From a virus (Duplodnaviria; Caudoviricetes), in IMG/VR virus record IMGVR_UViG_3300032007_000001: a DNA stretch of 64,000 bases; one strand, written 5' to 3'. Both the position numbers and the translations under genes were made by a program. Under the pieces are notes generated by a model. That model saw only the letters and a program-made list of their open reading frames with translations, made no database searches and was not told where the DNA came from. Below, piece by piece: positions 1-45,076 of the stretch. Positions within the stretch are counted from its first letter, which is position 1. Every line of letters starts with the position of its first letter.

Positions 1-178
1 CATCACTAAAATCTGTTTCATCAAATATAAATTCTTGTGCCTTATACGTATCATTACCAACTGCATCAAGAATACCTTTTATTACATTCTTAAAAGATTC
101 ATCCATTTCTTTTTCATTAACAGCAACAATAAAGGATGATGAACTGGAATTCGTTACAAAATCATTTCTTATTTTCAT
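1..178 (-). CDS. TNSSS-motif protein (3' end runs off window)
   Basis: Manual translation from ATG at 178: MKIRNDFVTNSSSSSFIVAVNEKEMDESF...; ATGA overlap with the stop of 175..630; not in ORF track. Confidence 0.85.
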   Translation of the reverse strand, partial: MKIRNDFVTNSSSSSFIVAVNEKEMDESFKNVIKGILDAVGNDTYKAQEFIFDETDFSD

Positions 179-630
179 AAGTTAATTCTCCTTATAATAT
201 TGCCATTGTTTTTGACAACTGTGGATTCAAAATCAAAACTAAATTCGTTGTCAACATTAATATTAAAAACATCTTTTGAATTATTAGAAATTATTTCTTT
301 ATATGTGTCAATATCCAAAAAATCACAATTTGTAAATTCATTAATAAGATGAATTTTTGCAAATGTTTTATCTTCAAAACTATAAAGAAATTGCAATATC
401 TTATCATCATCATGATATTTAATTTCTTTTTCCAAAGAACTATTATAATCCTCAATGAAAATAGAATTAAATATCCAATCAACGTAATCTTTTGGAGACT
501 TTATTGAAATCTTTTTCATTTCTCTCAAAAAATATTGCTTCATATAACTATCAAAATTTTGTCCTTTTTCAAAAGAAACCAAAAATTGAGTAGAAGAAGA
601 ATTTGTAATGAAATCATTTCTAATTTTCAT
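175..630 (-). CDS. TNSSS-motif protein
   Basis: Starts MKIRNDFITNSSSTQF; coupled (ATGA) to the upstream radical SAM gene. Confidence 0.85.
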   Translation of the reverse strand: MKIRNDFITNSSSTQFLVSFEKGQNFDSYMKQYFLREMKKISIKSPKDYVDWIFNSIFIEDYNSSLEKEIKYHDDDKILQFLYSFEDKTFAKIHLINEFTNCDFLDIDTYKEIISNNSKDVFNINVDNEFSFDFESTVVKNNGNIIRRINL

Positions 631-1772
631 TTTTTATATTTCTCCTTTTTATCACACAACACTATTTCATGTTTGATTGGACATCCACCCATGCATATAA
701 TTCTTTTATCGCAATTCATACAAGAATGCATAAGTCTGCTTCTAAAATCATTGAATTTATCAGATTCCCATGCTTCTTTTAATGTATGATTTCTTAAGTC
801 TACGCCCCATTTCATTTCTTGGTCAAAACTACATGGCATCATATGCATATTAGCAGAAATATAAGCAGAAAATCTACCACCTTCACAAGTATCTATGGAA
901 TTCTCATCTATGTCTTCTGAAAAATTTACAATTGCTGGAATAGAGCATGAATCAAATCCAATCTTAAACGGATGTTCTTTGGAAACCAAAAAAAAGAATT
1001 TTTGAATCTTTTCAGAATCGTTTTCCAACGTTAACATATTGTCAATTCTTCCAAGACCAACTGGTTTATATAACAAAAAAATAAATGCATTGATTGGATT
1101 TTCTTCAAAATTATAAATATAAATTTTATTATCGTCTTTCCATTGCAACATATGTTTTTCCAATAAATCAATTGCATCATTAATTGTCTCTTTTGAGAGA
1201 ACAAAATGTATATTCGTTTTACATCCAGCATCAATAAATTTTTTCAAAGCATCTACAGTAAATTTTTGATAATACCATGAAACAGCCACTGCACCACAAT
1301 ATTTTTTTGTAGTAACAACTGCGTCATCAGTCAAATCAATACCGGATGTAGTATAATTTGGAACGATATTATTGCTTCTTGTATATTCACATATTTCATT
1401 AAAATATTGATGGTCATTAGGATTACCAGCTCCACCAAGAGCTACTTGCATTAATCCGTTTTCTTTTCCTTCATCAATAATGGATTTATAATCATCTAAC
1501 TTCATGTCCTTCTCTGGGTCATATTTCCTTGCTCCTTGGTAGCAACCAGATATACTACCACCAGCACGACACAAACCCTTAGAAGCGGCCTTACAACCTC
1601 CCATGATACCGATGTCAAGCAACCCTGGAAAAGAACGCATAAATGGGTCTATGTCAGTATCTTTTCCATCTTTCAAAATTCCACTTCTTATATATTCACC
1701 TGTCAATGTATTAAAAACTTCTATAAATTTGAATTTATAATCAGAATATTTGAGAATATGATTGTTTTCCAA
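627..1772 (-). CDS. Radical SAM/SPASM protein with atypical Cys spacing
   Basis: C-x7-C-x8-C-YQ cluster motif, LGGAGNP, C-terminal SPASM (CEGG...PCSF...CMNC...CMGGC). Confidence 0.85.
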   Translation of the reverse strand: MENNHILKYSDYKFKFIEVFNTLTGEYIRSGILKDGKDTDIDPFMRSFPGLLDIGIMGGCKAASKGLCRAGGSISGCYQGARKYDPEKDMKLDDYKSIIDEGKENGLMQVALGGAGNPNDHQYFNEICEYTRSNNIVPNYTTSGIDLTDDAVVTTKKYCGAVAVSWYYQKFTVDALKKFIDAGCKTNIHFVLSKETINDAIDLLEKHMLQWKDDNKIYIYNFEENPINAFIFLLYKPVGLGRIDNMLTLENDSEKIQKFFFLVSKEHPFKIGFDSCSIPAIVNFSEDIDENSIDTCEGGRFSAYISANMHMMPCSFDQEMKWGVDLRNHTLKEAWESDKFNDFRSRLMHSCMNCDKRIICMGGCPIKHEIVLCDKKEKYKK

Positions 1773-4303: not shown

Positions 4304-5887
4304 TTAATCTGTTGTTTTTGTATATTGAATAGTAACATAAGATTTTGTGAAGTCAGAACTATCAGTAGTTCTTCCCATTAATTGAATAACAGCATTAGAT
4401 TGGTTTGAAAGCAATATAAATTGCACCGTAACATTTAAAGTTGTATAGTTGTCTTGTATCTTTGGTATACTTCTCCAATAGGGTTGACCAGAATTATAAT
4501 TATAGCAGATGCCTTTTATATCGATTATTTCCTTAACAATAGTTTTTTCTAAAGGTAAAGTTATTGTTTTTACTGTACTATTTGGTAATGCCCCACAATC
4601 AACTGTTATTTGATATATCGGCTTACCATCTATCCATGTACCTATTCTTTGTTCTTCTGTACTATAATTATTTTCTGGTGTAGATAATACTGATGTATTA
4701 TATTTAATGCAATATAATACAGAAGTATTTGTAGGACGGGAAGTATAGGCACGACGCACTTCAAAATTATCCGAACCAGTTGTAGTAGATGATTGCGCCC
4801 ATAATCTTCCCCCTGTGGTTTTAATAGCTTTATCTTCGGAAACTACAGCTAGTTTAGTTTCCGAAGTATTAACATCCATTTGTAATTTTGTTCCATTATA
4901 ATGAACATTAGGTATTTCAGTACCGTCTTGATGTACACCAACGTTACTCCCACTGCCTTGATTTGTGTGACTATTAGTCCCTGTGCCACGCAAAAATTCT
5001 CCGCGCAAATCTGGAACTGCAAAAGTGGTAGTTCCATCTCCACCAAAATAATTATAACTACCAAATTGTGCTTTAATATACTCTGCTAATTCTTTATAAT
5101 CTATTATATTATAGACTGTCCCGTCGCAAGCTAAATAATCTTTTGGAGCAGTATTACCCATATAAGAAATAACAGTTCCTATTGGAGTATCATTATAAAG
5201 AGTATTAGATGTATCTTTTCTATATTTTATCTGTGGTATTAATGTTATTGCTGGAGGTTGTACTGTATCTACTGAATCTGAATAGATAGAATTACTACTA
5301 TTTGCGCTAAATTTCATGTTCGTTTTATACTGCCCAGCACCGGTCGCTGTTGTAACTTGTTGGAGTTTCCCGACTGTTGCTGTGGCCTTAGAATTAGTAA
5401 ACGCGCCTGATTTTCCGCGAATATTTGCATCTTCTGACGATGGAGTTTCTAAAAACTCAGCAGACCCAAAATATTCGCCTTTTATATTAGGCAATCCTGC
5501 TTCTTTTTCTTCTACTGTACTACCACCTTGTAATACTAAATCTATATAATTTGGTAATGTTAATACATCTGTATTGCTATTATATTTGAATAAAGCTTTA
5601 TTAGAAGAATCATTAGTAATTAAATTATTATCTTGAGCATAATCTAATAATTCCTTATAATCTGTTGAAGCATCAGCTAAATTCGTACCATCTAATTTAA
5701 GATAGTCTCTTAATAGAGACATCTGCCAAGTTATATATCCAACCGGTGCATCTGATGCCACAACAGCACTAGATACATTAACATCTCCTAAATAATCATC
5801 TATATTATTTGACGTTAAATTTTTTACTACCTTAAATTTTGCAGAACCATAAGTTATAGTATCATTTAGCGCAGTCAATTTTTTCAC
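4304..5887 (-). CDS. Tail fibre protein with phage tail-collar domain
   Basis: PIGTVISYMG...YLACDG...FAVPDLRGEFLRG collar motif; IGTWIDGKPIY C-terminal module; N-terminus shared with 61697..63235. Confidence 0.85.
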   Translation of the reverse strand: MKKLTALNDTITYGSAKFKVVKNLTSNNIDDYLGDVNVSSAVVASDAPVGYITWQMSLLRDYLKLDGTNLADASTDYKELLDYAQDNNLITNDSSNKALFKYNSNTDVLTLPNYIDLVLQGGSTVEEKEAGLPNIKGEYFGSAEFLETPSSEDANIRGKSGAFTNSKATATVGKLQQVTTATGAGQYKTNMKFSANSSNSIYSDSVDTVQPPAITLIPQIKYRKDTSNTLYNDTPIGTVISYMGNTAPKDYLACDGTVYNIIDYKELAEYIKAQFGSYNYFGGDGTTTFAVPDLRGEFLRGTGTNSHTNQGSGSNVGVHQDGTEIPNVHYNGTKLQMDVNTSETKLAVVSEDKAIKTTGGRLWAQSSTTTGSDNFEVRRAYTSRPTNTSVLYCIKYNTSVLSTPENNYSTEEQRIGTWIDGKPIYQITVDCGALPNSTVKTITLPLEKTIVKEIIDIKGICYNYNSGQPYWRSIPKIQDNYTTLNVTVQFILLSNQSNAVIQLMGRTTDSSDFTKSYVTIQYTKTTD

Positions 5888-7570: not shown

Positions 7571-8656
7571 CTATTCATTAACTTTCCAGCATTGTGGGTC
7601 TGGACTATAGAAATTCCCGTTTGTTCCACAAGACACCGCTGGACATCCACGACAGAATGCAAGTAATTTGCAATCTTTACATTTTTCAAATTTATCAAAA
7701 TCTCTATAGTAATTCATTTTATCTCCAAGCCAAACTTCAGAAATATCATCTGTTAAAGCATTTCCAACAACAGAATCATTAATTCTTCTGCATGCCAACA
7801 AATCTCCATTTGGCAAGATTGTCATATGTCCAATTCCACAATGACAACCCGTATATATCGTATCATCATTTTCTTCTACATAATTTGGAGCATCCAATCT
7901 TCCAATTTCATAATGGAATAAATTCCATAGATGGTCCTTATATCTAAAACTCGTTGTACATCCAACACTTTCATAAAAATCAAAACGGTCTTGCATTTCT
8001 TCCAAAAATTTTCTATATCTTTCTGGAGTCAATCTATTGCTTTTATCTTCATAAACTGGAACGTATCTAGAAAACGTAAATCTTCTAGCTTTCCAAGCAA
8101 CCTCATCTACAAGCGATGGAATTTCATCGATATTCTTATCACTGACTGTAGACATAATAACACTATATAAATCATTTCTATTCAAACATTTTAATGCTTC
8201 AAATGTAGCATCATAACTTCCAGGTTTTCTAAACCAGTCGTGCGTTTCTTTTAATCCATCTAAAGACAATTGATATTTAGTACATCCACTATCTTTTAAT
8301 TTTTCAGCAACTTCGTCAGTTAAATGGAATGGATTGCCAAGAATAATAAATTCAATTTTATTTTTCTTTAATTCTTTTATCAAGTCCCAAAAATTCTTAT
8401 GAAGTAACGGGTCTCCACCAGTAATAGCAAACACTGGTACTCTATGTAATTTTTTACACGAACTAATAACATTATTCAAAACTTTTTGCATATTATCCCA
8501 TGACATTTCTACAAGATTTTTGTTTCCGCCATGGAAAATATAACAATGCTTGCATCTTTGGTCGCAATTATCCGTAATGTGCCATTGAAAAGATAATCCC
8601 ATTCTTATACTATCATCATTAGTCCAAGATTTCCACATATTTATGCGGTCTAACAA
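7571..8656 (-). CDS. Radical SAM/SPASM peptide maturase, ACGX-system (AcgM)-like
   Basis: FQWHITDNCDQRCKHCYIF CxxxCxxC, TGGDP, full SPASM (CHCG...ACRR...CKDC...CRGCP...DPQCW). Confidence 0.85.
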   Translation of the reverse strand: MLDRINMWKSWTNDDSIRMGLSFQWHITDNCDQRCKHCYIFHGGNKNLVEMSWDNMQKVLNNVISSCKKLHRVPVFAITGGDPLLHKNFWDLIKELKKNKIEFIILGNPFHLTDEVAEKLKDSGCTKYQLSLDGLKETHDWFRKPGSYDATFEALKCLNRNDLYSVIMSTVSDKNIDEIPSLVDEVAWKARRFTFSRYVPVYEDKSNRLTPERYRKFLEEMQDRFDFYESVGCTTSFRYKDHLWNLFHYEIGRLDAPNYVEENDDTIYTGCHCGIGHMTILPNGDLLACRRINDSVVGNALTDDISEVWLGDKMNYYRDFDKFEKCKDCKLLAFCRGCPAVSCGTNGNFYSPDPQCWKVNE

Positions 8657-14553: not shown

Positions 14554-14994
14554 TTATCCGCAAGATGTTTGCGAATCACCGCCGCTGCAACTGCATGAAC
14601 AAGACTAACTCGAACAATTTTGCGTGCAATTCGTTACTGGTGGATTTGGGTCTGAATTTTGTTCAGAAGAATCTATATTGTTTATAAAATTTTTAATTGT
14701 TTCGTCTGTTTTTATTAAGTCGATTATTTGCGATATGGCGTCATCCAATGACACTGGTTCATATCCAAGTGCGTCAACTATTTGATTTTTTGTCAGTTCT
14801 ATATTTTCTGAGTCGATTGATAAATTTTTAAGTATTAATTTTTGCAATCCATTTTTACTAAAAGTGTTTTTACTTAAATTCTTCATATAATATGTCATAT
14901 CTTTTATCTGATTAACTTCAGTTTCAAAATGATATGATTCCAATTCGTTCGTTGACGAATTGGGTAAGTTAAATTTAGATTTTTTTATTGACAT
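14554..14994 (-). CDS. Cys-tailed protein paralog 3; in-frame TAG at 14605-14607 (truncated or read-through)
   Basis: HFETEVNQI / ALGYEP N-terminal domain; frame continues SCSCSCSGGDSQTSCG to TAA at 14554. Confidence 0.75.
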
Positions 14995-15012
14995 ATTTCA
15001 TTCCTCTCGTTT

Positions 15013-15510
15013 TTAATTGTCGTTATCATCATTTGCGCTGCCGCAACTGCAACTACAACTATACGTACAATTCGTTTGCGTCGCTGTACATTGACTGCAT
15101 TCAATTGTATTTTTTATTGAATTACATTGTTTGCATTGTGTTTCTGTGCATTGATTACATTGTAGATATGTTGTTCCGCCTTTTGGTTTATTGTTTTTTA
15201 TGAATTCTTGTATTTCTTGATTTGTTTTTACAATATTGGTTACTTGTGCTTTAATTGTTTCCAATGTTGCCGGTTCATAACCAAGAACATCAATTATTTT
15301 ATTTTTTGATAATGATATATTATTGGAAGTAATTTCCATGTTTTCGGTAACAGAATTTTGCAATTCTTCTTTAGTTGTTATTGTTTTATTTAATTTTTTC
15401 ATATAAGAAGTCATATCTACTATTTGGTCGACTTCTGTTTCAAAATGATGTGGTTCGTATTCATTGGTTGAAGGATTTTGTAAGTAAATTACAGATTTTT
15501 TATTAGCCAT
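15013..15510 (-). CDS. Cys-tailed protein paralog 2
   Basis: HHFETEVDQI domain + CNQC..CKQC..CSQC..CTYSCSCSCGS tail. Confidence 0.85.
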   Translation of the reverse strand: MANKKSVIYLQNPSTNEYEPHHFETEVDQIVDMTSYMKKLNKTITTKEELQNSVTENMEITSNNISLSKNKIIDVLGYEPATLETIKAQVTNIVKTNQEIQEFIKNNKPKGGTTYLQCNQCTETQCKQCNSIKNTIECSQCTATQTNCTYSCSCSCGSANDDNDN

Positions 15511-15528
15511 TTTTCATTCCTCTCATTT

Positions 15529-16020
15529 TTAGCTTCCGCAATTTCCACAACTGCAGCTGCAACTGCATGAATAACTGCATTCCCGATAATTGCAATTATA
15601 ATATGTACAATCTTTACATTGTGTATAAGTACACTGGTTGCAATTTTTGCATTGAACCTGAGTTGCTGCGGCGTTTTCTGGTATTTCGTTTTTAATGTAA
15701 TCCTTAATTTCTTTATTTGTTGTAAATGTATTTATAATATTCGTTTTAATTGTTTCCAATGTTGATGGTTCATTTCCCAAAGCATTTACAATAGTATTTT
15801 TTGAAATTTCAAGGTCTTCAGAATTTGCTTCTATATTTTCCGAAAGTATATCACATAATTCATTTTCATTTTTTACTGTTTTATTCAATTCTTTCATATA
15901 ATCAGTCATATCTGCTATTTGGTCTACTTCAGTTTCGAAATGATGAGTATCAAACCCACTAGCAGAAGAATTTGGTAAATGCATCGTTGATTTTCTATTT
16001 GCCATTTTAATTCCTCTCAC
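15529..16020 (-). CDS. Cys-tailed protein paralog 1
   Basis: HHFETEVDQI domain + CKNCNQC..CKDC..CSYSCSCSCSCGNCGS tail. Confidence 0.85.
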   Translation of the reverse strand: MRGIKMANRKSTMHLPNSSASGFDTHHFETEVDQIADMTDYMKELNKTVKNENELCDILSENIEANSEDLEISKNTIVNALGNEPSTLETIKTNIINTFTTNKEIKDYIKNEIPENAAATQVQCKNCNQCTYTQCKDCTYYNCNYRECSYSCSCSCSCGNCGS

Positions 16021-16593: not shown

Positions 16594-16694
16594 TGGAAAA
16601 GAAAAAAACAGAAAAAAAGAAACCAATCGTTGTTGGGTCAATTAAGGTATGGGATATTACTCAAAAGGAAGATAAGAAAAAGACTAACAAATAA
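16593..16694 (+). CDS. Small Lys-rich peptide (33 aa)
   Basis: GAGGTG RBS; MEKKKTEKKKPIVVGSIKVWDITQKEDKKKTNK; terminator overlaps its end. Confidence 0.55.
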   Translation: MEKKKTEKKKPIVVGSIKVWDITQKEDKKKTNK

Positions 16695-16759
16695 AATGTT
16701 AGTCTTTGTTTTTTTATTGTGTTTTCACATTATATATTTATAGAGAAAATAATTAGCGG

Positions 16760-18354: not shown

Positions 18355-19341
18355 TTAACTCCAAGGCAGATTTTTAAGTTTATCTGATAAACTTTGTATT
18401 CTTCCAGAAGAAAATCTTTGGTTTTGTTCATTAATTATCTTATTATCTTGTGTATGCAGATACATATTTGTATGTACACTGTGAGCAGTCAATCCAGCAA
18501 CTCTTTCCATTATTTTGGCTTCTCTATCTGCACCAGTTGTGACAATAGATGTTTCGAAGAATTCTGGATTGATATTATATTCCATGACTGGTAACATTTC
18601 GCCATTGAATGACATTGTCATGCCCTTGTAGTTTCTAATATGTTCGCACATGTTTTCTTCTGTAGTGCATTCATTACCACAAATAGAGCATATTGATTTT
18701 TCTACAGTGCATCCCATAGAAACGTCAGTAATCATTTGTGTACGTAATGCTTTTGCCAATTCTGGGAAAGCTACCTTATCAATAGCAAAAAGAATTTCTA
18801 CTAAATATTTATCAGGATTATAGACAACATCTAATATAATGCCTCTTGCATCTTCTACATTTTCGTTGTTATGGTCAACGAAAATTGATTTGCCGCGAAG
18901 CGTTTCAAATGGGCCATTCAGTTGTTCATAATTTAATTTCTTGCCAGTAGCGGCTTCGCAGGTTTTATCATTTGTAAGATGTTCATGCATAAAAGCATCG
19001 CCATTGTCATTGCTATTTCTGCAATACTTTGAATATTTTGCTAAATTTTTCTGATAAGTCTCAAAAGGAATCAATTCATAACTTCCATCTTCGTGCTCTA
19101 TAACGTTACCAGACGTTAATGCTACAGCACGATGATATTGGAAGTCATTTTCTTTTGGAGCAACCTGTATTACTTTCCCAGCTGTTTTTACCATAGCTGG
19201 GTCAATTAATGTTTTAGATTGCTTAAGTATATCCATTCTTAAGTTATGGTAATCTTTTAAAAGGCCTTCATACTTGTTAGCTTCTATTTTACCACGTATG
19301 TTTTTCTTTGTTATCAAGTATGACACCTCCATCCTCGTCAC
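18355..19341 (-). CDS. Prohead (capsid maturation) protease
   Basis: NDNGDAF, FVDH, VSMGC catalytic-type motifs with CSICGN..CEHI zinc finger; downstream of portal. Confidence 0.75.
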   Translation of the reverse strand: MTRMEVSYLITKKNIRGKIEANKYEGLLKDYHNLRMDILKQSKTLIDPAMVKTAGKVIQVAPKENDFQYHRAVALTSGNVIEHEDGSYELIPFETYQKNLAKYSKYCRNSNDNGDAFMHEHLTNDKTCEAATGKKLNYEQLNGPFETLRGKSIFVDHNNENVEDARGIILDVVYNPDKYLVEILFAIDKVAFPELAKALRTQMITDVSMGCTVEKSICSICGNECTTEENMCEHIRNYKGMTMSFNGEMLPVMEYNINPEFFETSIVTTGADREAKIMERVAGLTAHSVHTNMYLHTQDNKIINEQNQRFSSGRIQSLSDKLKNLPWS

Positions 19342-20072: not shown

Positions 20073-20984
20073 TCAAACTATTGTTGTTAGAAAATAATTG
20101 TAGATATCTTCATCTACCAATTGCAAAGTTTCTCTATCAAGAATGAATGCAATTAATGATTCCAACAAATAATTAAACGAATTTTGTTCTGCTAGAAAAC
20201 TAATAAACCGATTGCTGCTAAAAGATTTCGTTTTTCTGTAAAAAAGTGCTTTCGTTCTTTCGTTTTCTTCTACTTTTAATAGATGTCTCAATAAATCTTT
20301 TTTATACGTAAATGCATCGAATTTCTGATAAATTTTCCTATCTTCAACGAACATTAACGTATCTTCCGATTTATTATAAGTCATTGGGTCGTTAAAGTAA
20401 GTTATTTTTAGATTTTTTTTTATTAAAAATTTATACCGCATCAACATAAAACGCATAAATGATTCAATTGCATTTTTATATTTTACAGGTACATTAAAAA
20501 ATTGATAATCATGTGTAATGATATTGATTGTATTTTCAAAGTTTTCTTTTAATTCCAAATAAGAATCACAATCATCATGTAAAAAATGGTCATCCAAATT
20601 TTTATTTGTACTCTTTAAGAATTTGCAAATATCACAACATTTATCGTTTACAACGAAATTGGTTTGTACATTTTTGCTATGCTCCAATTGGCAGTTCTTA
20701 AAAATATAGCTTAGCTCTCTTTCGAGAATTTGCTTAATAGCATCAAATGGAGCTGAAAAATCTACTTTTTCCATGTAAACTTTCGTTTCAGCGATATCGT
20801 AAGAATCAATGAATTTATGATTTTCTTCTTCCACTTTTAATGATTTTTGTGCACATGCATCTATTACTAATAGATTATTTGTAATGAAATTGCATATACT
20901 GTCTATCAATTCTTCTTTCGTTAATTTTGGAGAGAAATTATACAAAAATTCACTGAGTATGTTCTTAACAGAATTATTCATCAT
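20073..20984 (-). CDS. Possible degenerate MuF-like minor head protein
   Basis: Directly after portal; CCDIC...HDDCDS resembles the MuF CxxC..HPxCRC motif. Confidence 0.4.
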   Translation of the reverse strand: MMNNSVKNILSEFLYNFSPKLTKEELIDSICNFITNNLLVIDACAQKSLKVEEENHKFIDSYDIAETKVYMEKVDFSAPFDAIKQILERELSYIFKNCQLEHSKNVQTNFVVNDKCCDICKFLKSTNKNLDDHFLHDDCDSYLELKENFENTINIITHDYQFFNVPVKYKNAIESFMRFMLMRYKFLIKKNLKITYFNDPMTYNKSEDTLMFVEDRKIYQKFDAFTYKKDLLRHLLKVEENERTKALFYRKTKSFSSNRFISFLAEQNSFNYLLESLIAFILDRETLQLVDEDIYNYFLTTIV

Positions 20985-22689
20985 TTTCTCCTGTTACTAT
21001 TGGTTCTTTTTTCATTCCCATGTGTCTTCTAAATCTTGGTTTCACAGACGCTTCCGGAAGCCCAAAATCACTTGGATTGTTGTTTATGGATAATCCATTG
21101 CCTGTCATAGAAGGAGGCTCTGGTCGAGGCGTGGCGTCTTCTCCATAAGGTTGTTCTATTATACTACTACCAGTCTCAATATCATCTGGTTGTACCAAAC
21201 GTTTGCCTTCGTTTGGCAACGGACCTTCCTTAGGAGCGTTCGGGTCAAATATGGTGCCACGTTCTCTTTCAAGATTTTTCTTTTCTACTTCTGGGTCTAA
21301 TCCAATGATTGGATAAAGCGTTGTCTTAGACAACATGCCAGCTTCGCTAAGCTTTTCAAAGAAGCTCATAATAGAGTTATTGGAAGTTAAGTCTTGCTGT
21401 TGCCAAGTAATCTTTGGTACAATTAATTCAACTTCCTTGTTGGCTGCCATTTTTTTCAATTGTTTCCCACTATAACCAGCAATACTTCCACCGTGTCTAT
21501 GCTTATAAAATCCTTGTACTTCAGCTATTGGACGATAGACTTTATTTCTTACCCAAGATTCTAATCTCATACGGTAAGTCATATATCTTCTAGCTAAAGC
21601 GTCTACACCAACTTGAGCAGTGTTATATGTACTTCCATCACCATTTAATAATGCCGATGTTATTCCTAATCCCGCCATCAATTCTTTTTCTATGAAATCA
21701 AATTCAGTATTTAATGGCAAAATCTTTCCGCTTGAACCAACATATTCAAAACTTAATCCATAATGATAAACTAAGAAGAAGTTTGGGTCATCTTCACCAA
21801 TAAGAAGTATATCTCTAAAATTATCTATTTCTTCTTGAGATGGATAAGATTCTCCGGGTGTACCAAGTTTTGCTACTCTTAATGGAGTAATATGTCTATT
21901 GGCTATAGCATCTTGTGCTTGACGAAGTTTGTCTTTGTACATCAACGTCTTAAAACATCTCATCATTAACGGTGTTCCCCACATTTCATATGGAGATGCT
22001 TTATGAGCTATATGACTTACCAATCTATTGTCAAGCATAATGTTTTTGCCCATTTTGACTTGACGTATTATGTCTTCTGGGAATTGTTTGTATAATTCTG
22101 CGAATTCGCCAACTGGACCAGCTTTTATGATAGACATTACTTGGTCATCTGGTATCAATTCTATAATTTGGTCTTGAGCAAATATAGAAGAAGATATATT
22201 TACATAATCTGGATTTAATAATGTAAAACGTTCCCATTCGCCAGTTGTTTCATTGAATTGTCCGAATGGAAAAACATCACCTATTTTCCAGTATTCCAAT
22301 CCAATATCCAAAAGCAAATTAATAATATCTAATTTATCAAAAGCCAAATAATCAAAAAATTCTTTGACTTTTGGTTCAGAACATACGTTACTGAAACTAG
22401 AAATAGGAAATTCTGTATGTATATCTAATGCTGTTGCTACAACAGGCTCTGTTCGATAGTAGTGGCGCGCCCACTCATTTCTCTCGCGCCTATCTCTTGG
22501 AAGGAACATTGATAAGGCTTGGAACAGCGGATGAAAGAAATTCGGCGCGCCGAATTTCACATCCAGAGATGCTGCGGTGCGTTTCATATTTCTTTGGGTT
22601 TTTTGCGGGAGAGAATTAGAATCTATAATTGTATTAAACATTCCATTTTTAGCAATGGCAGCAGTTTTATTTATATGATTCCTTTTCAA
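20974..22689 (-). CDS. Portal protein
   Basis: 571 aa; YYRTEPVVATALDIHTEFP, LNPDYV, WGTPLM, LMAGLGI motifs typical of large-phage portals; upstream of protease. Confidence 0.8.
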   Translation of the reverse strand: MKRNHINKTAAIAKNGMFNTIIDSNSLPQKTQRNMKRTAASLDVKFGAPNFFHPLFQALSMFLPRDRRERNEWARHYYRTEPVVATALDIHTEFPISSFSNVCSEPKVKEFFDYLAFDKLDIINLLLDIGLEYWKIGDVFPFGQFNETTGEWERFTLLNPDYVNISSSIFAQDQIIELIPDDQVMSIIKAGPVGEFAELYKQFPEDIIRQVKMGKNIMLDNRLVSHIAHKASPYEMWGTPLMMRCFKTLMYKDKLRQAQDAIANRHITPLRVAKLGTPGESYPSQEEIDNFRDILLIGEDDPNFFLVYHYGLSFEYVGSSGKILPLNTEFDFIEKELMAGLGITSALLNGDGSTYNTAQVGVDALARRYMTYRMRLESWVRNKVYRPIAEVQGFYKHRHGGSIAGYSGKQLKKMAANKEVELIVPKITWQQQDLTSNNSIMSFFEKLSEAGMLSKTTLYPIIGLDPEVEKKNLERERGTIFDPNAPKEGPLPNEGKRLVQPDDIETGSSIIEQPYGEDATPRPEPPSMTGNGLSINNNPSDFGLPEASVKPRFRRHMGMKKEPIVTGENDE

Positions 22690-25433: not shown

Positions 25434-26450
25434 TTAATCTATAAAAATTTCTCGTAATTCTTTAATAGGCATAAAAAATTGTTTGCTTACATTACAAAAG
25501 TAATTATTCATAGTTTCAGTACTTTGTAGCATACATCCGCCTCTACAATATACATTAACATCGCAATTAATGCATTGTTCTTTTCTATGTTCTTTATAAA
25601 AATTTAATACCTTTTTTGTAATTAAATAATTATTATTCTTTACATTTCCTAAAACAATATCAGAATTATGACATAAATATAATTTACCATCATTGGTTAC
25701 GTTAATGATATTCATTCCATTCATGCATTTGGGAAATCTATAATCATATTTATGCAAATCTCTTTCTATAAGAGAATCAATATATAAGTCACTTGCTTCT
25801 ACATTTGTTTTTTCATCTTGTACATCAATATAATGATTGCATAATTCTTTCATTTGATTATATAATAAATTAGAATCTATGTTACTTAAATCATTTAAAT
25901 TATTATTATTTAGAAGCAAATCTAAGTTTGTTGTTACGTGTCTTTTATGTTTTTGAATATATTTTTTATTGAATTCTTTAATAGAATCAAACCAATCTTT
26001 TGGATAATTATATTTTGTAATAACACCTGTTAAACATAATCCTTTTATTTTTAAGAGTAAATCTTCTTTTTCTTTTAGAACGTTATACCCTCTAGTAATA
26101 TCAGAATTATTACCGTCATAACTAACACCAACAGAAAATAAATTCTTATTAAAGTAATTAACATATTCTTCATTTAATAATTTTCCATTCGTTACAATAT
26201 TGTATCTTATTTTTCTTTTGAATTCATTGACATATTTTTTTATATCTTCAAAAAAGATAAGCGGTTCTCCGCCAAAAAATGTTAATTTTGATTTTTCTTT
26301 TTGAGAAGATATGATTTTGTGAATATAATCAAAAACATTTGTATCAATTTCATGACTTAGTTGTTCATTGACTATATTATGTTGTATGCAATACTTACAA
26401 TTTAAATTGCATTCATGGCCAAGCATTATAAAAATATTTGCTATTTTCAT
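25434..26450 (-). CDS. Radical SAM/SPASM protein
   Basis: CNLNCKYC, FFGGEP, VTNG, SYDG, SPASM (CMNG...LCH...CINC...CRGGC...C). Confidence 0.88.
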   Translation of the reverse strand: MKIANIFIMLGHECNLNCKYCIQHNIVNEQLSHEIDTNVFDYIHKIISSQKEKSKLTFFGGEPLIFFEDIKKYVNEFKRKIRYNIVTNGKLLNEEYVNYFNKNLFSVGVSYDGNNSDITRGYNVLKEKEDLLLKIKGLCLTGVITKYNYPKDWFDSIKEFNKKYIQKHKRHVTTNLDLLLNNNNLNDLSNIDSNLLYNQMKELCNHYIDVQDEKTNVEASDLYIDSLIERDLHKYDYRFPKCMNGMNIINVTNDGKLYLCHNSDIVLGNVKNNNYLITKKVLNFYKEHRKEQCINCDVNVYCRGGCMLQSTETMNNYFCNVSKQFFMPIKELREIFID

Positions 26451-42272: not shown

Positions 42273-42528
42273 CGCAATTTCCTTCTTTACGTTGATTTCT
42301 TATGTTTTCAACGAATTCTCTAATATGTTGTGGGAGAAAAACATCGAAATCATAATTATCAACCATTTGATGAGATAATTTTTCAAGGAAATCGTCTCCA
42401 ACTTTTACATTATAAATATCGGCAATGTCCAACAATTCATCATCGCTGATGTGTTTTTCCAAATATTCGAAAAATTGGTTTTCCCATGAAAAGTTACTTT
42501 TAACTAATTTAGAAAAATTCTTCTTCAT
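42211..42528 (-). CDS. Hypothetical acidic protein
   Basis: AAGGAG RBS before MKKNFSKLVKSNF. Confidence 0.6.
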   Translation of the reverse strand: MKKNFSKLVKSNFSWENQFFEYLEKHISDDELLDIADIYNVKVGDDFLEKLSHQMVDNYDFDVFLPQHIREFVENIRNQRKEGNCVEKRNLESQDKVLHLVPFYT

Positions 42529-44197
42529 TGTTTTTCTCCTTATCCATAGCTTTGATTCCATTCATAAATTTATTCAAATCGAAATTATCATAAGAAATAA
42601 GGCGTTGTGCAAAATAAGGGAGATATCTCTTAAAATTATTCCAAATACGAATGAATCCTTTGTCAAGAACATATGTAACAGACCAATCATCTTCCGAACG
42701 AGTGCTCCTACCGCAGGCCTGAACAAATTCTCTAAGCATTTTAATAGCGTAGAAAGTAAAATTTGTTTTGGAAATGTACTGAATACGCGGGTCAGAAAGG
42801 CTTGCATAAGGAAGTTTCATAATGATTTGAAACCGAGACAAGTCCTCCTTTAAATCAACGCCGCTCATCATAGAAGGAGAAACCAAAATAGAAGCAACTT
42901 TTGCTTTTTCATGTACTTTAACAAGATATTCATTACTAGCATTATTTTGTTTGTAAATAAAACGTTTTGAAGGAATACGATTTACAAGGAAATTCATTAC
43001 TTTATAATTTCCAGTGTGAATGATTCCTTTTGAATTTTTATGAGTAGCAATAATATCTTTTACAATATTTTTTGCTTTATCAACGGTTTTATCATATTCT
43101 CCCATTTTGAAAGAAAGAATGGGATTGAGCACAACTGGCGAACGATGTGGGTCGAAAGTACTTTGTTCTGAAATGTACATCGTTTTATCTGGGTCAATAC
43201 CAAGTTCTTGGCAGAAGTTATTTTTGCCAAAAATCGTAGCAGACATAAAAAGTACTTTTTTAATTGCTTTTCTATCAATGAATTCCTTAAACATTGTTTT
43301 AGAAGCAATAGGAAGACAAAGAATGGAAGTACCTTCACATTTAGTAATCCAATTACCAGAATCGTATGTTTCTACATAATTAAAAATGCGACGAGTATAC
43401 TCTTCCATTTCTTCTTTTTCTTTATATTTTTCAAACAATTCTTTTTTAAGTTCTTTATCTTCTGTACCAATCAGATTGGAAATACGTATTTTGTTTTCCT
43501 GAATGCGTTTTTCCAACATTTCATTGATAGTACGAAGTATTTCAATGTTTTTTTCATCATCATTGGAAAAAGTTTTATGAAAATAGCATTCTTCTCTAAA
43601 AGACAAGTTAGCTTCTGCAAAGAATTTCTTTTCAATATCTTCCAAGTCAACATCTACTTTTGCCAAATCAACGAGAGTGTCATCAAGAAGATGACATTCA
43701 TCAATAACAATAATATCTCTCGGCACAAGCGTATCTTTCGTTTTTTTATGAGAAGCAAATGAAAGGAACAATGCATAAGAACTAATGAACATTTCCGAAC
43801 GCATTGCTTGGTCAAAAGCATTTGAATATGGGCAACGATTGAATTTATTGCAAGTTGCTTTCGTTCCAGCTGTTTCAAGGCATTTACCATGAGCACAAGA
43901 CATCTTGGGGTCAAGAGCACAAGCATAATTGCCTTTTCCTTTCAAAAGAGAAACATCAAAATTTTTGAATTCATTTTCATATTGTTCTTGAAGCATTTTT
44001 GTGGAAGTTAAAACGTAGCTATTGCCAAAATAACCGGAAAGAGTTTTGGCAATAGCAGATTTGCCAATACCAGTACCAGCTTCAAGCACAATGTAACGAA
44101 TATTATTGTTGTCAACACATTCTTCAATTTTATTCAAAATTTTATCTTGAACCGGACGGATTTCTTTATGAGGAAAAAATCGTGTAAGTTTATTCAT
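42509..44197 (-). CDS. DinG/XPD-family SF2 helicase
   Basis: EAGTGIGKS, Fe-S cysteines, DECH, MSAT, QACGRSTR; start moved to MNKLTRFF because the track start overlaps the promoter. Confidence 0.85.
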   Translation of the reverse strand: MNKLTRFFPHKEIRPVQDKILNKIEECVDNNNIRYIVLEAGTGIGKSAIAKTLSGYFGNSYVLTSTKMLQEQYENEFKNFDVSLLKGKGNYACALDPKMSCAHGKCLETAGTKATCNKFNRCPYSNAFDQAMRSEMFISSYALFLSFASHKKTKDTLVPRDIIVIDECHLLDDTLVDLAKVDVDLEDIEKKFFAEANLSFREECYFHKTFSNDDEKNIEILRTINEMLEKRIQENKIRISNLIGTEDKELKKELFEKYKEKEEMEEYTRRIFNYVETYDSGNWITKCEGTSILCLPIASKTMFKEFIDRKAIKKVLFMSATIFGKNNFCQELGIDPDKTMYISEQSTFDPHRSPVVLNPILSFKMGEYDKTVDKAKNIVKDIIATHKNSKGIIHTGNYKVMNFLVNRIPSKRFIYKQNNASNEYLVKVHEKAKVASILVSPSMMSGVDLKEDLSRFQIIMKLPYASLSDPRIQYISKTNFTFYAIKMLREFVQACGRSTRSEDDWSVTYVLDKGFIRIWNNFKRYLPYFAQRLISYDNFDLNKFMNGIKAMDKEKNNEEEFF

Positions 44198-44227
44198 GAT
44201 ATTCTCTCCTTTTCCGATCTTTTCCAT

Positions 44228-44256
44228 ATTATACCACAAGTTGATATAATTGTAAA
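44228..44256 (-). promoter_or_regulatory. Sigma70-like early promoter
   Basis: TTTACA-17-TATAAT with TG. Confidence 0.75.
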
Positions 44257-44293
44257 TAGAAAAGAGAACGTTTTTTCGTTCTCTTTTAAGTAA

Positions 44294-45076
44294 TCAATAA
44301 CCATAGAATTGCCTTTGAATATTCTCAACATTTTTTGTAATATATATATCTTTAATTTCTGTTTTGTCCATTGTGAGAATACAAAGATTCATAAAAGCAA
44401 AGAACACACCAGCAAATGCATGATAAAGTTTTCCCATATCTATCTTATCATTTGGTTTCTTCCAATGTTTCCAAGAAATTTGTTGTCTTACTAGAGCACA
44501 CATATCGGATAAACTACATACTGCTTTTAAGATAGATAAATCATAATTGTTATCTAATTTAAGAAAATTTTTAATACCATAGTGTTGGAATTCGTACGAA
44601 ATGTCCAACAAATCTCCTTTGTCTGTTATTTCAAAACGTTTGCGATAAGCTTGCTCTATTTCTTTCGCAGACGCATTACCACAAATGAACATATCCATAA
44701 CAAAATGAAGAATGTCAATAACTTCTTTTTTAAGTTCTTCTTTATTATTTACTTTTGGTTCTGCATAAATATTTAAGTATTCTCTAATTTCTCTTATTTC
44801 ATCTTCTATGCATACAAGATATCTATCAATCCAATGGTCCATTTCTTCTTTATTGATATTGTTTATATCGTGAAAACGAGATTCAAATTTTTGTTGCATT
44901 GAAAAAATAAGTTCCCATGCAGGAAGAGATGTATTGAAATGATTTGATGTTAAAATTTCATTGACTTTTCTTGGGTCGCTGGCATCTTTATAAGCAAAGA
45001 ATTTTGGACACGGACATTTGATATCTTCACATTTCTTTTCAAGATACGGACAATCTTTTTTGTTGAAATCACTCAT
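44294..45076 (-). CDS. Dimeric (all-alpha) dUTPase
   Basis: EDEIRE, KEVIDILHF, WKHWKK, YITKNVENIQRQ motifs. Confidence 0.8.
   Translation of the reverse strand: MSDFNKKDCPYLEKKCEDIKCPCPKFFAYKDASDPRKVNEILTSNHFNTSLPAWELIFSMQQKFESRFHDINNINKEEMDHWIDRYLVCIEDEIREIREYLNIYAEPKVNNKEELKKEVIDILHFVMDMFICGNASAKEIEQAYRKRFEITDKGDLLDISYEFQHYGIKNFLKLDNNYDLSILKAVCSLSDMCALVRQQISWKHWKKPNDKIDMGKLYHAFAGVFFAFMNLCILTMDKTEIKDIYITKNVENIQRQFYGY

Follow-up and report, generated by a model that had tools for sequence, protein, structure and literature searches.

Short fibre-type proteins with cysteine-run tails and a candidate radical SAM/SPASM partner in a 504-kb cattle-gut phage

Three tandem paralogs and their cysteine tails

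The DNA studied here, a window of 64 kb, comprises bases 385438-449437 of a 504,279-bp virus record from IMG/VR (29.7% GC), which is rated complete by CheckV; the same stretch is present in sequencing runs from bovine and sheep gut metagenomes. Three tandem paralogous genes on its minus strand encode short, apparently fibre-type proteins, two of which end in a tail that is very dense in cysteine. Together with these proteins (the trio) we describe the radical S-adenosylmethionine (SAM) enzymes of the phage, one clade of which is a candidate for cross-linking the tails. Coordinates refer to the window unless they are marked "genome", which stands for the 504,279-bp record, and labels such as L012 denote loci that were compared.

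Paralog 1 (15529-16005, minus strand) comprises 158 amino acids when read from the ATG at 16005, the list of open reading frames (ORFs) giving 163 amino acids from a GTG at 16020. Paralog 2 (15013-15510, minus strand; 165 amino acids) has the same architecture, and paralog 3 (14605-14994, minus strand; 129 amino acids) is ended by the TAG 14605-14607 where the (S-C)n part of the tail begins. For paralog 1 the ATG is most likely the start rather than the GTG, because GAGAGGAAT then stands 4-5 nt ahead of the ATG in all three genes and because the database protein P0001, 96% identical to paralog 1, also has 158 amino acids. Another database protein, P0002, shares 48% identity with the paralog 1 query and, when aligned with paralog 2, matches it in nearly every letter. 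Among themselves the paralogs show 42-51% identity across some 110 N-terminal residues, with an invariant HFETEV.QI.DMT.YMK and an ALG.EP motif, and the general layout is an N-terminal fibre module, one ALG.EP fibre unit with a helix, and the cysteine tail.

The tail of paralog 1 (15532-15651, minus strand) holds 12 cysteines in 40 residues, arranged as C-x2-C, C-x4-C and then (S-C)4-G-N-C-G-S. That of paralog 2 (15016-15159, minus strand) holds 10 in 48 residues and ends in (S-C)3-G-S-A-N-D-D-N-D-N. The cysteine share of long ORFs is 1.6%, and in the whole 504 kb only four ORFs have at least 10 cysteines in any 40 residues, namely paralogs 1 and 2 and two distant proteins with immunoglobulin (Ig)-like domains. 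These two are neighbours of each other, 80 kb from the trio: a protein of 206 amino acids (genome 480850-481470) with the tail end S-C-S-C-G, and a protein of 115 amino acids (genome 481488-481835) ending in (S-C)4-G-G-G-G-D. All four share the same type of tail, and the tails are far beyond chance. Because the codons of the (S-C)n run are mixed, the run is not a DNA microsatellite and selection would have acted on the protein and not on a DNA repeat. In variants of the paralog 1 tail from other metagenomes all cysteines are retained, one of their codons having changed synonymously.

The 206-residue protein has an Ig-like N-terminal domain with a weak match to He_PIG, and the Ig-like unit occurs also in a BspA-type repeat protein; the 115-residue protein is Ig-like by eye only and matches no family. 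The tails of paralog 1 and of the 206-residue protein share 67% identity over 24 amino acids, and paralog 1 is thus closer to this distant tail than to that of its own neighbour. Judged from such sequence comparisons the tail is a portable module, carried either by the fibre N-module or by Ig-like domains. No model of Pfam or NCBIfam covers the tails, and the NCBIfam models of modification targets gave no match to them at an E-value of 0.1 or better.

In paralog 3 the remnant of the tail (14554-14604, minus strand; 16 codons, S-C-S-C-S-C-S-G-G...S-C-G, plus TAA) is untranslated under genetic code table 11, and the SCSCSCSGG...SCG tail would be made only upon read-through of the TAG as far as the TAA at 14554-14556. 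An alternative genetic code was considered and rejected. The 504-kb genome has no suppressor tRNA, and under table 11 ORFs of at least 100 amino acids already cover 90% of it; therefore we read the TAG as a stop. This TAG aligns with TAT (Tyr) in paralogs 1 and 2, and TAT is also found at this position in contigs of two other studies, one of a bovine and one of a sheep gut metagenome. In the tail remnant of the sheep-gut variant three of four changes are synonymous and every cysteine is retained. The bovine contig has TAT at 14605 but TGA in place of TGC at Cys123 (14626), which at a depth of 2.3 may be an error; if real, this TGA would be a second, independent truncation of paralog 3 just ahead of the tail. 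Loss of the tail from paralog 3 is thus recent and may have happened more than once.

A tblastn search with paralog 1 against 50,697 phage records gave zero matches, and a scan of IMG/VR with the trio alignment gave 125 pattern matches, none of which was confirmed. The matches to Ssu72, GvpU and phrog_6631 from Pfam, PHROGs and NCBIfam are each below cut-off and were dismissed as noise. Between 14300 and 16800, promoter-like sites are fewer than in shuffled sequences and the sole hairpin (16679-16707) lies outside the trio. A rumen metatranscriptome contig of 211 nt spans 14814-15024 with 1 mismatch, which is no proof of transcription. The AlphaFold2 monomer of paralog 1 has a mean pLDDT (the score of the predicted local distance difference test) of 48.8 with an unstructured tail, the ESM Atlas returned zero feature matches, and all structural neighbours have template modelling (TM) scores below 0.4.

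The N-terminal module and the middle unit

The first approximately 55 residues of the trio also begin two other proteins of the phage. One, of 626 amino acids, contains the Pfam domains Collar, Gly_rich_2 and DUF6273. The other, a fibre-type protein of 270 amino acids, is encoded next to the genes for the tail sheath and two virion structural proteins, and it contains G-M-M-S-S-V-D-K-T-K-L-D and H-x-H motifs, which we take to be typical features of tail fibres.

An exhaustive profile search with the trio, which covered 1.84 billion representative proteins, found only 26 matching ones. In every fibre-like protein among them the N-module begins at residue 1, for example in P0015, a fibre with Collar and Gly-rich parts, and in P0018, a coiled tail-fibre protein. 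Profile positions 53-95, which correspond to the ALGYEP unit (residues ~55-95), occur as repeats, at most 8 per protein, in fibres as long as 2549 amino acids. The same unit is repeated in a 1202-residue protein of the phage, where Pfam Phage_head_fibr matches in 5 stretches. The cysteine tail is present in 0 of the foreign proteins found with the profile. A IHYETDVDSIVDL stretch in the tail fibre of L018, noticed by eye, was tried as a further relative of the N-module and is not supported, the trio profile finding nothing in four related large phage records.

The genes of the prohead protease (18355-19341, minus strand) and the portal protein (20974-22689, minus strand) are 2.3-5 kb away from the trio. 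Because fibres carry both the N-module and the repeat unit and because these structural genes are nearby, we conclude that the trio most probably represents short fibre-type particle proteins, which would trimerise and sit in the virion.

On these points the original prediction has fared well. It had described three tandem paralogs with a common N-terminal domain of about 110 amino acids, had likened their ALGxEP motif to a tail-fibre repeat and had taken the N-terminal part for a virion anchor, and the identities, the repeat units of long fibres and the shared beginning with a Collar fibre and a sheath-adjacent protein agree with all of this. Its statement that each protein ends in an (S-C)n-G tail applies to paralogs 1 and 2, but in this genome not to paralog 3 with its TAG stop.

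Radical SAM enzymes of the phage

The 504-kb genome contains about 14 radical SAM genes; nine have SPASM matches, seven of them above the Pfam cut-off. Because of this abundance the presence of three such genes in the window is not telling by itself.

The candidate maturase (25434-26450, minus strand; 338 amino acids) has a CX3CX2C motif, a seven-Cys SPASM pattern and a CteB/PapB-like sequence. Among NCBIfam models it scores 104 bits with PapB (NF047865, cut-off 340) and 85 bits with SCIFF (TIGR03974, cut-off 425). Its best match in the PDB is the thioether-forming CteB (5WGG/5WHY), and since the alignment starts at CteB residue 96, the recognition element (RRE) for peptides made on the ribosome and modified after translation (RiPPs) that CteB carries at its N-terminus is absent. 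A paralog with 46% identity is found at genome 478594-479619, and the two tailed Ig-like proteins are encoded 1.2 kb downstream of it. The clade of these enzymes, recognisable by 'IFIMLG..CN..C.YC', retains CX3CX2C and the seven SPASM cysteines. Structure prediction of a complex between the 25434 enzyme and residues 80-163 of paralog 1 gave a score of 0.00, which speaks neither for nor against binding.

The enzyme at 7571-8656 (minus strand) is by score a member of the ACGX family of radical SAM/SPASM proteins (TIGR04340, 480.6 bits, cut-off 400) and shares about 55% identity with thousands of enzymes from Clostridia; these closest homologs suggest a host of the Clostridia type. Its target could be a peptide of the host or the S-C-G ends of the tails. 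A peptide encoded next to a bacterial ACGX enzyme consists of S-A-C-G-S/A repeats, whereas the whole phage genome gave no match to the ACGX-repeat peptide model TIGR04341 at an E-value of 10 or better.

The third radical SAM/SPASM protein (627-1772, minus strand) has C-x7-C-x8-C in place of CX3CX2C, and its gene overlaps the downstream genes at 175-630 and 2-178 (both minus strand). The products of these two genes begin with MKIRNDF[IV]TNSSS and form a candidate substrate set, so that the 627 enzyme may have an enzyme-substrate set of its own that is separate from the cysteine tails.

Neither a C39 peptidase nor an ABC transporter above the cut-off was found in the 504-kb genome, which fits a product that stays on the protein.

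Two further regions of the genome deserve mention. Downstream of the tailed Ig-like genes, in genome 478594-485000 (L009:1595-8072), follow three more genes, two of which encode paralogous PP-loop-like proteins of 343 and 399 amino acids (S-G-G-I-S/T-S motif, no family match) and the third a Peptidase_U32-like protein of 329 amino acids. These could be further maturation genes, or unrelated genes for tRNA modification. In L044 a PP-loop-like gene (S-G-G-L-D-S motif, by eye) lies about 2 kb upstream of its enzyme gene. Elsewhere, genome 459297-469644 (L008) harbours a cluster of five radical SAM genes; the C-terminal ~150 amino acids of the protein encoded ahead of it share 48% identity with the C-terminal domain of the tail fibres found in front of the Cys-tail cassettes of L014 and L018.

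Conserved neighbourhood of enzyme and tail genes

IMG/VR was scanned with an alignment of the 25434 enzyme and its genome paralog, and a bacterial scan covered 185,579 species genomes. We looked for ORFs with a Cys run or an (x-C)n tail at a distance of at most 1.5 kb from the enzyme gene and on the same strand. In IMG/VR nearly every full-length homolog is directly followed by one or two small Cys-rich proteins, which contain (C-Q-x-C-Q-x)n runs and ends such as C-D-C-N-C-G-D-D-G-G-G-G. The closest bacterial hits belong to prophages of Acidaminococcus, Succiniclasticum, Megasphaera, Selenomonadales, Phascolarctobacterium, Ruminococcus and Elusimicrobiota.

Altogether such a tailed ORF accompanies the enzyme in 26 of the 32 phage and prophage loci with full-length homologs, many of these loci being mutually related. 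Two of the six misses are artefacts: L015 does have such a protein, and in L020 the contig breaks off within the enzyme gene. Most of the tailed ORFs are 0-50 bp from the enzyme gene, and the pair usually lies in a tail-fibre module. As a background, 236 kb of more distant flanks contain 2 Cys-tailed ORFs, and for remote radical SAM matches a Cys-tailed ORF was found in 7 of 36 loci. The loci have 28-57% GC overall (28-50% for the IMG/VR phages) and come from several bacterial phyla. In L014 the cassette is placed between the genes for the tape measure, Dit and tail fibre proteins and that of the endolysin, and in L038, L042 and L043 a (N/D-C)n-G-D-D tail is part of the tail protein or fibre encoded just upstream of the enzyme.

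Both enzymes of the clade in our phage are 28-38% identical to the cassette enzymes over about 330 amino acids. By pattern, the tails of the phage agree with those of the cassettes, in which a Cys run leads to a terminal (x-C)n-G with Gly, Asp or Ser after it. A tail gene within about 1.5 kb of the enzyme gene is found for the Ig-like tailed pair and not for the trio. The window also encodes, at 42509-45076 (minus strand), proteins of 576 and 260 amino acids that are 37% and 52% identical to products of genes following the cassette in L012 and L015, and because of this the cassette neighbourhood seems to have been rearranged in the megaphage.

The survey also brought up other Cys-rich proteins near radical SAM genes. 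A 346-residue phage protein (L023:5265-6305) consists almost entirely of a C-D-C-N-Y-C-T seven-residue repeat with a Gly-run end and is encoded 3.3 kb downstream of another radical SAM/SPASM gene. Contigs of Limnohabitans, Burkholderiales, Paraburkholderia and Rhizobium (L071, L072, L076, L087, L088, L099, L103, L104) encode (N-C)n-ended proteins, with ends such as N-C-N-C-N-C-N-C-C-G-C-C, at 0.2-5 kb from distant radical SAM relatives. The pairing suggests that these contigs are perhaps prophages. The theme of a dipeptide-Cys tail thus extends into the Proteobacteria.

With regard to the enzymes the original prediction stands in part. SPASM radical SAM genes do lie at 627, 7571 and 25434, the absence of a transporter and a leader peptidase extends to the whole genome, and the choice of the 25434 enzyme as the best candidate partner agrees with the neighbourhood of its clade and with the position of its paralog near tailed genes. 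The idea of three maturases forming one system is not supported, because the 627 enzyme is coupled to the TNSSS proteins and an enzyme like that at 7571 is missing from five other phage records with the cassette. Nor does the 25434 gene lie among late-type genes, as had been stated: no recognisable late genes surround it.

Proposed function of the tails

The gene structure, the sharing of modules, the enzyme family and the conserved neighbourhood of enzyme and tail genes together lead us to the view that the trio represents virion fibre proteins whose cysteine tails are cross-linked by the 25434-type enzyme clade, and we consider this view somewhat better than evenly supported. We infer that the enzyme acts on the tails of the trio, by thioether chemistry. 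The N-module of about 55 residues would most likely dock the protein onto the particle, and the following 'N..I...ALGYEP + helix' unit, a single copy of what is repeated in long head and tail fibres, probably trimerises. The C-terminal part would then be a Cys-dense tail of 40-50 residues with an (S-C)n-G end. In an anaerobic host the enzyme would most likely abstract hydrogen from side-chain or backbone carbons of the tail and, by analogy with CteB, PapB and CrpC, the Cys sulfurs would be joined to carbons of neighbouring tail residues. Such thioether staples, within or between chains, would convert a floppy tail into a compact knot. The C-terminal end of a fibre is usually its distal end, and the knot would accordingly be expected at the far end of the fibre, where it would resist reduction and proteases.

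As a precedent for whole proteins as substrates we count the enzyme CrpC of Methanococcus voltae, which introduces ranthionine thioethers at the C-x-x-Q/D motifs of CrpA, a large protein rich in Cys (PMC13692751).

Several observations weigh against this assignment. The 25434 enzyme remains far below the cut-off of every NCBIfam equivalog, and therefore its reaction is not given by its family. It is the nearest enzyme of the clade to the trio and still 9.4 kb away, not adjacent, and the gene that does adjoin it encodes an acidic protein free of cysteine. The cassette companions, a ~280-residue 'KIKLGRKWYEVWNEY' protein, a second radical SAM protein and a ~220-residue protein, are absent from the 504-kb genome as searched by tblastn. 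BLAST found no homology of the tails to foreign Cys-tailed proteins, and hhalign aligned only the terminal aromatic-x-C-x-C-x-C-G motif (6-13 columns, probability 43-48%), so that membership in the tail class rests on pattern. The relatedness of many of the 32 loci means that they are not independent and that the count overstates independence. Finally, the tail is gone from one paralog here and hence is not essential on every copy.

The tails could also do their work unmodified, by binding Zn, Fe or an Fe-S cluster or by forming disulfides at a trimeric fibre tip, with the radical SAM genes serving other ends. We regard this as rather unlikely, and still as an explanation to be reckoned with. 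Other phage fibres bear metal sites along their axis, a C-x2-C spacing is characteristic of such sites, and the H-x-H motifs of the 270-residue fibre-type protein are presumably like those of fibre metal sites. The lack of an enzyme next to the trio points the same way, as do the roughly 14 radical SAM genes, several of which have likely substrates of their own. What this reading leaves unexplained is why, in most of the loci examined, such tails lie within 50 bp of the gene for one particular radical SAM/SPASM clade, and disulfides cannot be relied on under the anoxic conditions of the gut. The binding of metal by tails that are unmodified, or modified in part, is a serious rival and may coexist with cross-linking; a stapled tail could itself hold metal. 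The partner of the tails might instead be the ACGX-family enzyme at 7571-8656, acting on their S-C-G-x ends. Its membership in the family is clear by score and by its likeness to the Clostridia enzymes, the genome encodes no ACGX-repeat target for it, and the S-A-C-G-S/A repeats of the bacterial peptide recall the tails, four out of five of which include S-C-G once or more (only in paralog 3 is it placed past the TAG, so that read-through is needed). We nevertheless consider this improbable: TIGR04341 does not match the tails at an E-value of 0.1 or better, no ACGX-family enzyme occurs in five other phage records with the Cys-tail cassette (best score 31 bits; two of the records are at least 98% complete), and the gene stands amid unrelated small genes and could equally act on an ACGX peptide of the host.

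A further possibility is that the proteins are not virion parts at all and represent precursors of a released or intracellular RiPP-like product, with the shared N-terminal region as leader. A conserved N-terminus followed by a variable Cys-rich C-terminus is indeed the layout of RiPP precursors, as in CrpA and CrpB. However, the N-module also heads the 626-residue Collar fibre and other fibre-like proteins that lack the Cys tail, it is missing from the proteins with Cys tails in other phages, the middle unit belongs to the fibre repeats and the genome provides no protease or exporter, all of which leaves this explanation a little less probable still than that of the ACGX enzyme. That the tails are functionless low-complexity sequence, kept by chance in a fast-evolving family, is already very improbable. 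The truncation of one paralog here, perhaps repeated independently in another strain, and the missing structure of the tail in AlphaFold would fit; a Cys density of 15-20 times the background, mixed codons, cysteines conserved across variants with synonymous changes, and the same tail on unrelated N-terminal domains would not.

A wider statement can also be made, which we put forward tentatively and with slightly less than even confidence. Phages of anaerobic habitats would finish the tips of their particle fibres with radical SAM chemistry of the RiPP type, a dedicated CteB-like enzyme without RRE stapling a portable Cys-run tail of the (x-C)n-G kind. In the megaphage the enzyme would have been duplicated and the tail placed on at least two kinds of carriers, namely Ig-like domains and the fibre anchor module. 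The whole would form a general and as yet undescribed class of covalent maturation of virion proteins. In the literature searched we met with no account of radical SAM enzymes that act on fibre proteins of phages. To our knowledge the thioether chemistry of radical SAM enzymes has been described for small secreted peptides and, from 2026 on, for a single archaeal protein. Virion fibres would therefore be a new class of substrates, if the reading is true, and the reaction would join proteolysis and isopeptide bonds as a covalent maturation of virions. It would help to explain the many radical SAM genes in gut and rumen phages, and it would point to a compact, reduction-proof tag that can be moved between proteins.

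Other features of the window and the genome

The first 23 kb of the window contain structural genes interspersed with small genes of unknown function. In addition to those of the protease and the portal protein, a gene for a Collar-domain fibre protein of 527 amino acids is found at 4304-5887 (minus strand). Outside the window, in genome 2930-6468 and 486508-487692, the phage carries a transfer-messenger RNA and 17 clear tRNAs, among them tRNA-Cys(GCA); one more tRNA call is uncertain.

Comparison with known systems

The candidate maturase resembles the enzymes of the ranthipeptide/SCIFF group (CteB-SCIFF, PapB-PapA freyrasin) in being a full-SPASM radical SAM protein, CteB being its best solved relative and PapB its best NCBIfam model, and the candidate substrates likewise contain many Cys, with Gln, Asn, Thr, Asp and Glu interspersed. 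Unlike CteB, the phage enzyme is without the N-terminal RRE of ~95 residues, and the curated scores are not reached. The candidate substrates are proteins of 129-206 amino acids with fibre or Ig-like domains and not leader-plus-core peptides, and with no protease or exporter present the product would remain on the virus particle.

With the ACGX system the phage shares the 7571-8656 enzyme and a tail sequence, S-C-G-x, that recalls A-C-G-x, but it has no ACGX peptide and its tails do not match TIGR04341. In the CXXX-repeat system (targets TIGR04114/TIGR04117, maturase TIGR04115) a phage-borne radical SAM enzyme is likewise found beside Cys-repeat proteins tied to tail fibres. Here, however, the tails have no target match at an E-value of 0.1 or better, the best 25 models for the 25434 enzyme do not include TIGR04115, and the spacing of the cysteines is 2 to 4 and then 1 instead of a regular 3.

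In CrpC/CrpA, as in QhpD/QhpC, a SPASM radical SAM enzyme puts thioethers on a large Cys-rich protein and not on a short peptide, and in CrpA the Cys motifs also stand beside Gln or Asp. CrpC differs in belonging to another family (TIGR04463) and in having an RRE, and CrpA in its 17-residue repeats (PMC13692751). Moreover, it is a cellular system of unknown function, not a viral one.

The cassette of phages and prophages (L012-L047), for which no curated family exists, has enzymes of the same clade, 28-38% identical over their full length, and the same linkage to fibre genes. In the megaphage the enzyme is duplicated, the trio lies at a distance, the three companion genes are missing, the tails are carried by a fibre N-module or by Ig-like domains, and they contain Ser where those elsewhere have Asn, Asp or Gln. 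The maturation of Cys-rich substrates by SPASM radical SAM enzymes is thus of a known kind; new are the candidate substrates, which would be virion fibre proteins, and the unlinked and duplicated arrangement of enzyme and substrates in a megaphage.

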